DNA of 7,566 bases from a virus (taxonomy: Duplodnaviria > Heunggongvirae > Uroviricota > Caudoviricetes). The stretch lies in the IMG/VR virus record IMGVR_UViG_2681813004_000023; one strand, 5' to 3'. The stretch's first letter is position 1; every line of letters begins with the position of its first letter. Of this stretch, positions 665-1,338 are shown piece by piece. Below the pieces are notes generated by a model, which did no database searches, was not told the DNA's origin, and was given only the letters and a program-made list of their open reading frames with translations. The translations under genes and the position numbers were made by a program.

Positions 665-1338
665 TGAAAAACACTATCAGCGAACGTATTCGGAATCGTC
701 GAAAAGACGTTGGATTAACCCAACAGCAGGTTGCGAAAGCAATCGGCATATCTCGTGTATCCGTAACAAAATGGGAAAATGGCTCTTCAAAACCTGACGG
801 TGAGAATTTGCATCTACTGTCAAAATTGCTTTCCAAATCTCCTGAATGGATTCTTTATGGAAAGGACGGTCACGATAAAACCGATGATCTGCGTCTGAAT
901 CAGTATCCTTACATTAGTGACAACATCGCCCGGTTGCCCGTTTTAACGTGGGAACAGGCTGGTTATTGGGATATGAGTTGTCCAGTAACCGAGATTCCTG
1001 GCATTAAGAATTGGGTTGATGTCATGACAAAAACCGCTGAAAACTCTTTTTTATTGCATGTTGAGGGAGATGCGATGACAAACTCTAACGGCCTCCCAAC
1101 CATCCCCGACGGATCTACCGTGCTGATCACACCATGCTCAAGTAACATTAGAGAACTGGTGGGAAAAATAATCTTAATCCAATTGGAAGGAACGCCAAAC
1201 GTAACACTAAAAAAAGTTGCGATTGACGGACCAAACATCTATCTGTTGTCACTGAATCCGCTTTACAAACCCATCGAACTGAATGGTGGTTACACCATTA
1301 AAGGTAAAGTTTCACAAATACATCAATACTTAGACTGA
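661..1338 (+). CDS. Phage cI/LexA-type repressor: N-terminal XRE-family HTH plus C-terminal S24 peptidase-like domain (225 aa from ATG 661; track ORF starts at 565)
   Basis: HTH segment LTQQQVAKAIGISRVSVTKWENG. C-terminal domain aligns by eye to lambda CI/LexA: VEGDAMT corresponds to lambda VEGNSMT and LexA GMSM; TLKKV corresponds to lambda FKKL and LexA VKRL. Start 661 is preferred over 565 because the 565 frame runs through the divergent operator/SD region and overlaps the cro-like start; there is no SD before 661, consistent with a leaderless pRM-type transcript. Confidence 0.8.
   Translation, partial: YMKNTISERIRNRRKDVGLTQQQVAKAIGISRVSVTKWENGSSKPDGENLHLLSKLLSKSPEWILYGKDGHDKTDDLRLNQYPYISDNIARLPVLTWEQAGYWDMSCPVTEIPGIKNWVDVMTKTAENSFLLHVEGDAMTNSNGLPTIPDGSTVLITPCSSNIRELVGKIILIQLEGTPNVTLKKVAIDGPNIYLLSLNPLYKPIELNGGYTIKGKVSQIHQYLD

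Follow-up and report, generated by a model that had tools for sequence, protein, structure and literature searches.

The stretch of DNA analysed here, hereafter the window, comprises 7,566 nucleotides of a tailed phage (Caudoviricetes; IMG/VR record IMGVR_UViG_2681813004_000023) and encodes on its plus strand a two-domain repressor of the cI/LexA type in which the nucleophile serine of the Peptidase_S24 (S24) domain is replaced by alanine. The best explanation for this protein, to which we assign a probability of roughly two in three, is that it serves a Qin-like lambdoid prophage as a natural ind- immunity repressor, whose nucleophile is naturally alanine and whose switch is uncoupled from RecA. 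Read in this way, it is an SOS-blind lambdoid repressor that has arisen by point substitution instead of domain loss, that is, a variation on the SOS-blind prophages already known and not a new class of mechanism. In the lambdoid cases described so far the whole peptidase domain has been lost, whereas here a Ser-to-Ala change is predicted to give the same outcome while the remainder of the domain stays under purifying selection. The allele is found in a prophage of about one in eight complete Escherichia coli genomes, including those of the pandemic sequence type 131 (ST131), the oversampling of which inflates this share.

A full-length repressor with alanine in the nucleophile column

The repressor is encoded in an open reading frame (ORF; 565-1338, plus strand) that is in frame with the codon at 1072-1074, and the following features can be assigned to it:

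622..1338, plus strand: repressor coding sequence, 238 aa from ATG 622, or 224 aa from the alternative start ATG 664 (ORF list; Pfam HTH_3 and Peptidase_S24)
688..852, plus strand: HTH_3 DNA-binding domain (Pfam, residues 9-63 of the 224-aa form, 2e-16)
937..1311, plus strand: Peptidase_S24-like C-terminal domain (Pfam, residues 92-216 of the 224-aa form)
958..963, plus strand: codons GCT GGT of the retained Ala-Gly scissile bond (EQAGYW; Ala113-Gly114 of the 238-aa form), aligned to lambda VQA/GMF (Ala111-Gly112)
1072..1074, plus strand: codon GCG, Ala (residue 151 of the 238-aa form) in the nucleophile (Ser) column, motif GDAM (phmmer, MAFFT)
1210..1212, plus strand: codon AAA, the retained general-base Lys (TLKKV), aligned to lambda TFKKL (Lys192)

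An earlier note on this DNA had recognised a cI/LexA-type repressor with an S24 fold, and Pfam, phmmer and Foldseek agree in supporting this assignment. The C-terminal domain matches PF00717 (Peptidase_S24) at 9.5e-17 and 61 bits (cutoff 23.3), over positions 1-115 of the 116 in the model, and the protein belongs to PHROG 4, transcriptional repressor (1e-43). When compared by phmmer with the sequences in the PDB, it aligns end to end with full-length lambda CI (3bdn, E 4.6e-14), and its N-terminal domain matches that of P22 C2 (E 2.6e-12) and shares 54% identity with residues 7-76 of DicA. The best Foldseek matches of an AlphaFold (AF2) model of the repressor, with a predicted local distance difference test score (pLDDT) of 77, are lambda CI, LexA and UmuD, with a probability of 1.00 for both the lambda CI C-terminal domain and LexA; the matches also include the engineered, non-cleavable Ser-to-Ala LexA entries 1jhh, 6a2s and 8s7g. 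Within this model the loop MTNSNGLP (residues 152-159, window 1075-1098) has a pLDDT below 50, and the remaining C-terminal domain lies between 80 and 90.

The codons GGA GAT GCG ATG at 1066-1077 read G-D-A-M, and phmmer pairs "hvEGDAMTn" with "evEGNSMTa" of lambda, placing the alanine in the column of Ser149. The phmmer and MAFFT alignments both put codon 1072-1074 where the earlier note had put it, and its claim that the partner lysine is kept holds as well, since TLKKV pairs with lambda TFKKL; in the MAFFT alignment of homologues this lysine column is nearly invariant. Regarding the elements expected of an active S24 autoprotease, the general-base Lys and the Ala-Gly scissile bond are therefore present and the nucleophile Ser is absent. 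A different conserved serine in the position of the nucleophile was considered and rejected, as neither phmmer nor MAFFT leaves any ambiguity in the alignment, and the serine of the nearby TNSNG does not compensate for the loss, as it is also found in the Ser-type relatives.

The repressor has two candidate starts. The RefSeq/PGAP annotation of identical copies ("LexA family protein", WP_000103684.1) starts at ATG 622 and gives 238 aa, whereas ATG 664 aligns with the start used by most homologues; by analogy with lambda cI and paaR2, translation may begin on a leaderless mRNA. The 14-residue N-terminal extension MSTIATSLGSNIGY that results from the use of ATG 622 (window 622-663) holds one of the putative operators described below (operator 2), and is missing in most homologues, which begin at the Met aligned with ATG 664.

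Prevalence and evolution of the alanine allele

Of 5426 complete E. coli genomes, 702 were found to carry the repressor gene at a match coverage of at least 80%, with at most two copies per genome and with an intact ORF in each case. A 61-nt probe centred on the Ala codon matches 683 complete E. coli genomes, 681 of them exactly, including that of the ST131 strain EC958; in one of the two inexact genomes, which was inspected, it is the neighbouring codon that differs (His to Arg) and the Ala codon is unchanged. Since the exact 61-nt context with its GCG recurs in 681 of the 683 matching genomes, a sequencing error or a private mutation is ruled out. Among complete E. coli genomes, 693 have the Ala type and 8 the nearest Ser type, a ratio that heavy ST131 sampling likewise inflates, and in a larger draft collection Ser-type members are found on hundreds of contigs.

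Among 78 clusters of homologues aligned with MAFFT, the nucleophile column holds Ser in 69 clusters with an intact KK motif and in 3 further clusters in which the Lys motif is altered or missing; Ala is limited to the closest clusters. In fact, Ala is found in all sampled members of cluster P0001 (E. coli and E. albertii, 15 of 15), of a second E. coli lineage at 90% identity (P0002, 8 of 8) and of a Salmonella enterica lineage at 70% identity (P0005, 14 of 14). Ser is found in all those of an E. coli lineage at 88% identity (P0003, 15 of 15) and of an Enterobacter bugandensis lineage at 67% identity (P0006, 5 of 5), and these two provide the nearest Ser-bearing relatives for the comparison that the earlier note had proposed. 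One natural homologue with Ser is WP_024173670.1. The more distant homologues sampled all carry Ser, with the exception of one degenerate copy from Arsenophonus nasoniae (P0030), in which PDDKTD replaces G-D/E-S-M-T-N and the Ala-Gly site is lost; it probably reflects gene decay in an endosymbiont. A scan of genome contigs for relatives in other species returned only Clostridia HTH matches.

The alanine codon is GCG in both E. coli Ala lineages and GCA in Salmonella, and the serine codon is TCA in the E. coli Ser lineage and TCG in P0006 (locus L007). The earlier note had pointed out that GCG lies one transversion (G to T) away from TCG, and TCG is indeed the codon of the outgroup L007, the nearest E. 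coli Ser relative using TCA. In a neighbour-joining tree built with the Ser/Ala column masked, the two Ala lineages and the one Ser lineage of E. coli form a clade with 100% bootstrap, the Salmonella Ala lineage is its sister, again with 100% bootstrap, and the next outgroup, the Enterobacter P0006, and the deeper homologues placed carry Ser. The grouping of the two E. coli Ala lineages with each other receives a bootstrap support of only 14-48%. This topology requires at least two changes between Ser and Ala, so that Ala would either have arisen once and reverted in one lineage, or have arisen two or three times. Only Ser or Ala is seen at the site within the repressor clade, and the EQAG of the scissile bond is retained in all Ala and Ser members.

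The constraint on the remainder of the domain was estimated from the two Ala alleles of E. coli. Between the window and P0002 (locus L076), the C-terminal domain differs by 43 synonymous and 11 non-synonymous changes, corresponding to a synonymous divergence (dS) of 0.73, a non-synonymous divergence (dN) of 0.037 and a dN/dS of 0.05, with an identical GCG codon. A dN/dS of 0.05 at this dS indicates that an S24 domain with a dead nucleophile is under strong purifying selection, which disfavours neutral decay. The Ala allele is fixed in the sampled lineages, and is neither an error nor a one-off mutation.

The immunity region

The repressor gene lies within an immunity region of lambdoid layout, which includes the following features:

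357..572, minus strand: cro-like gene, 71 aa, divergent from the repressor (Pfam P22_Cro, 2.9e-16)
602..615, no strand: putative operator 1, GTAACAATAGTTAC, in the cro-repressor intergenic region, overlapping the likely cro promoter -10
650..663, no strand: putative operator 2, GTAACATTGGTTAC, abutting ATG 664
1345..1370, plus strand: likely terminator, a stem-loop followed by a T-run, AACCCGCATTCATTGCGGGTTTTT, directly 3' of the repressor stop and read from the sequence
1400..1426, plus strand: predicted PL or dicBp-like promoter, with a -35 TTGACT (1400-1405) followed by putative operator 3, GTAACTCTTGTTAC (1413-1426)

As expected for a CI-type repressor of a lambdoid phage, an N-terminal helix-turn-helix (HTH), a divergent cro, palindromes at both promoter regions, and CII-like and replication genes are found, the latter as a YdaT/CII-like gene followed by O/P-like replication genes beyond cro in the homologous loci. 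The window Cro shares 38% identity with K-12 DicC. The perfect 14-bp palindrome GTAAC-N4-GTTAC occurs three times in the window, compared with 0.13 occurrences expected, and none of 200 shuffles reached three. The repetition and placement of these sites suggest that they act as operators, and the promoters are tentatively assigned from their position and by analogy with K-12. A consensus promoter and terminator scan of the region returned no sigma-70 match and left the stem-loop after the repressor uncalled. Operator 1 is kept in the related loci L003, L004 and L007, and the stem-loop with its T-run in L003 and L007. Since the operators are common to the Ser-type relatives L003 and L007, and partly to the Salmonella Ala type, the Ser and Ala forms would constitute one immunity group.

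In the cro leader, the palindrome CTCCTG-N10-CAGGAG (578-599) overlaps the cro Shine-Dalgarno sequence. The CTG-N10-CAG inside it (582-597, CTGTTATTTCGAGCAG) was considered as a LexA box and not relied upon, its score being 6.6 as against 12.7-26.8 for genuine sites with a position weight matrix (PWM) that was built from known sites. This element is confined to the E. coli Ala clade (the window and EC958) and absent from L003, L004 and L007.

Comparison with known switches

The window repressor has the same two-domain architecture and fold as lambda CI, P22 C2 and LexA, and shares with the lambda-type repressors the Ala-Gly site, the lysine, a divergent cro and palindromic operators at the positions of OR and OL. 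It differs from lambda CI in its N-terminal domain, which is of the P22 C2/DicA type, and in its operator sequence, which is its own. The substitution is identical to that engineered in lambda CI S149A and LexA S119A, but here it is natural, fixed and selected in hundreds of genomes. Our search of the literature returned no description of a natural Ser-to-Ala CI-type repressor, and no induction data for the ST131 prophage that carries it.

A close parallel is found in the DicA-DicC-dicBF system of the K-12 prophage Qin, with which the window shares the ydfABC-dicF-dicB-ydfD operon and, in strain 22-245, in which an identical repressor lies in a prophage next to rspB, the attachment site. The operators of K-12 dicA, dicC and dicBp occupy the same three positions as those of the window, one of them abutting the dicA ATG. 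Their sequence is TTAG(T/C)-N4-(A/G)CTAA in K-12 versus GTAAC-N4-GTTAC in the window, a difference which indicates that the two switches are heteroimmune. While DicA is a protein of 135 aa with no S24 domain, the window repressor (238 aa) retains a complete S24 domain and the Ala-Gly site, with one catalytic residue changed. The window system thus corresponds, to judge from its sequence, to a heteroimmune form of the Qin dicA/dicC/dicBF switch with a full-length repressor. DicA is likewise insensitive to SOS: it has been reported for K-12 that mitomycin C fails to induce dicBp, that the promoter flips spontaneously in a RecA-independent and DicC-dependent manner, that heat and urea induce it, and that the antirepressor Rem can derepress the dicBp/DicA system (bioRxiv 10.1101/2023.04.14.536235).

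Similarly, the prophages of strain Sakai whose repressors have no peptidase domain are not inducible by mitomycin (PMC2669165), and PaaR2 in CP-933P behaves in a similar way. In all these cases (GfoR and GtgR of the Gifsy phages, RacR, PaaR2 and the repressors of Sakai Sp4, Sp6, Sp9 and Sp10) the outcome is the same as that proposed here, namely that RecA* cannot directly inactivate a lambdoid repressor. Those short repressors have no peptidase domain, and several have known antirepressors, whereas the window repressor keeps the domain.

The loss of the catalytic dyad has also been observed in more distant proteins. When 1.84 billion representatives (at 50% identity) were searched exhaustively with HMMER, 100 full-length HTH-S24 relatives were obtained, in which the dyad is Ser/Lys in 79, Ala/Lys in 5 (the window protein included), Thr/Lys in 5, Ser/Arg in 5 and of other composition in 6. 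As 21 of the 100 deviate from the canonical residues at one catalytic position or at both, the loss of the dyad appears to be recurrent in the HTH-S24 family. Alanine occupies the nucleophile column in P0099, P0159, P0170, P0113 and P0219, and threonine in P0085, P0105, P0118, P0152 and P0182. The other dyad-less cases are anonymous metagenomic singletons, most of them without the Ala-Gly site; in contrast to these uncharacterised homologues, the clade of the window keeps that site, belongs to an abundant and defined prophage, and has direct Ser-bearing sister lineages. The same search also matched very long, apparently poly-HTH proteins with many HTH stretches in tandem (P0079, P0080, P0088, P0094 and others), for example one of 4162 aa with 30 matched HTH stretches and one of 1002 aa with 11.

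Proposed mechanism

The replacement of the nucleophile serine by alanine, as in LexA S119A and lambda CI S149A, abolishes both autodigestion and RecA-mediated cleavage, and by analogy with these mutants the window repressor would be expected to have lost self-cleavage, as the earlier note had reasonably supposed. Both of the consequences which that note drew, a locked or cryptic prophage or induction by a separate route, are plausible. The operator binding, SOS-blindness and switching route that we infer for the Ala repressor would be as follows. The protein presumably still folds, dimerises and binds the three GTAAC-N4-GTTAC operators, and in doing so would silence transcription from the cro promoter and from that of the leftward operon ydfABC-dicF-dicB-ydfD-exo-xis-int. 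With no RecA*-stimulated self-cleavage, DNA damage would not directly derepress the prophage or its toxic DicB and DicF genes. Switching would instead rely on a Cro-type bistability, either stochastic or under stress that destabilises the repressor, as in K-12 DicA/DicC; alternatively, a factor acting in trans might bring it about.

Several observations weigh against the interpretation as a natural ind- repressor. First, the AF2 model is of moderate confidence only (pLDDT 77), and is poor at residues 152-159, directly after the alanine. Second, the Ala-Gly site and the lysine are kept in all Ala lineages, which is unexpected if cleavage is irrelevant, although these residues may also serve folding or dimerisation. 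Third, the prevalence figures (about one in eight genomes; 693 versus 8) are inflated by the heavy sampling of ST131. Finally, the module is present at at least three attachment sites and in three species, and its EC958 copy looks structurally complete, so that the carrier phages must still be mobilised somehow.

The first of the alternatives, which we regard as rather unlikely, supposes that the prophage remains SOS-inducible in an indirect way, by means of an antirepressor or another small protein that is controlled by LexA or by a prophage, is encoded in the same or in a co-resident prophage, and binds the non-cleavable repressor. Induction of the antirepressor type is known from the Gifsy phages, 186 (Tum), N15 (AntC) and Qin (Rem). 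Such a route has been described for repressors that cannot be cleaved and that belong to the same prophage neighbourhood (Lemire 2011, PMC3121763; Rem/DicA), the immunity module is horizontally mobile, and a high-scoring LexA box, AACTGGATATTTTTACAGTA (PWM 23.6), is present in these prophages. On the other hand, that box sits at the 5' end of a methyltransferase gene, and equally so in the Ser-type L003, while the CTG-N10-CAG of the cro leader scores 6.6 and is not conserved. Moreover, tblastn detected no homologue of the Rem or GfoA type in L001 or L003, and PHROGs assigned no antirepressor annotation to the nine EC958 prophage ORFs, small or hypothetical, that were compared with it.

A broader proposal, doubtful in our view, is that the nucleophile codon acts as a toggle in evolution, in which one base change (TCR to GCR or back) would flip the immunity module between an SOS-inducible and an SOS-blind state, the blind state having been maintained for long by selection in E. 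coli, E. albertii and Salmonella. With operators in common between the Ser-type relatives and the Ala repressor, the latter would be trans-dominant, and would silence homoimmune inducible phages as well as the toxic dicB/dicF operon during DNA damage. Under this proposal the retention of the Ala-Gly site and the lysine would leave the Ala repressor still open to helper-dependent cleavage in trans.

If cleavage in trans were the main route, the Ala repressor would be a substrate of an active S24 partner (a homoimmune Ser-type repressor, another CI, LexA or UmuD), and induction would depend on this helper; we consider this highly improbable. Kim and Little reportedly observed in 1993 an intermolecular cleavage by the C-terminal domains of LexA and CI, the Ser-type relatives have the same operators, and no Ala lineage has lost EQAG, whereas most of the other dyad-less HTH-S24 representatives have. 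Nevertheless, cleavage in trans proceeds inefficiently in vitro, few genomes offer a Ser-type partner (8 versus 693 complete genomes), no genome has more than two copies of the gene, and the conserved site may reflect a structural constraint. Neutral decay of the repressor into a pseudogene within a cryptic remnant is likewise very unlikely, despite the damage seen in these prophages (detailed below) and the lack of a canonical dyad in about 20% of the distant representatives: two Ala alleles separated by a dS of 0.73 show a dN/dS of 0.05, every one of the 702 genomes has an unbroken ORF, the operators, cro and terminator are conserved, and only Ser or Ala is found at the site in the clade.

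If the interpretation as a natural ind- repressor is correct, the Ala and Ser sister alleles, with their common operators, would offer a natural system in which to study the fitness costs and benefits of prophage inducibility. It would also call for caution in predicting inducibility from the mere presence of an S24 domain, and might explain how toxic cargo of the dicB/dicF type stays silent under DNA-damaging antibiotics.

Downstream operon and prophage context

The remainder of the window, downstream of the predicted leftward promoter, contains the following features:

1611..3086, plus strand: predicted repressed early-left operon, with ydfA (DUF1391), ydfB, ydfC, DicF, dicB and ydfD (Pfam, Rfam and annotation of homologous loci)
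2487-2538, plus strand: DicF small RNA, between ydfC and dicB (Rfam RF00039, 76.7 bits)
2713-2901, plus strand: dicB (annotation of homologous loci)
2898-3086, plus strand: ydfD (annotation of homologous loci)
3182..7566, plus strand: exonuclease, excisionase and integrase block (Pfam Rv2179c-like, DUF1233, Arm-DNA-bind_2 and Phage_integrase)
6000-6251, plus strand: excisionase (Pfam DUF1233)
6271 to the window end, plus strand: integrase (Pfam Arm-DNA-bind_2 and Phage_integrase)

The repressor presumably also controls the host-targeting DicF small RNA. Within the exonuclease region a 274-bp tandem duplication (3632-3905 and 3906 to about 4191), missed by Tandem Repeats Finder and found by a separate repeat search, has copies that are 99% identical over the first 185 nt, with a 12-nt indel in the second copy. 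As a result, the exonuclease gene, which encodes 823 aa in related prophages, is here divided into the ORFs 3182-3937 and 3690-5927, and the window prophage is thus at least slightly damaged. The prophage of locus L001 is decayed, with frameshifted portal and protease genes plus an insertion sequence (IS). That of EC958 has a full set of morphogenesis genes, with lom interrupted by an IS. The module has been found at ompW, at rspB and at a yccA-like site, and its species are E. coli, E. albertii and Salmonella enterica. Given these multiple sites and species and the gene set of EC958, the module is not simply dead, and its phages are or recently were mobile. No sequenced phage isolate was found with a repressor more than 44% identical, which holds equally for the Ser-type relatives.

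The near-consensus LexA box AACTGGATATTTTTACAGTA, whose PWM score falls among those of genuine E. coli sites, covers the first codons of a prophage DNA methyltransferase gene downstream of Q, at these positions:

L075, 32978-32997: LexA box
L001, 10229-10248: LexA box
L081, 8614-8633: LexA box
L003, 603-622: LexA box
L076, 368-387: LexA box

A link between this box and the Ala state is ruled out, the box being identical in Ala-type and Ser-type prophages; the phage methyltransferase may be SOS-regulated. Two related prophages also carry cargo genes that look like defence-type morons, namely a pair annotated as "beta family protein" and "sce7726 family protein" between the terminase and lysis genes of L001 (5489-7118), and a 3.6-kb gene for a YobI-family P-loop NTPase between hokD and the replication genes of L081 (12731-16363).

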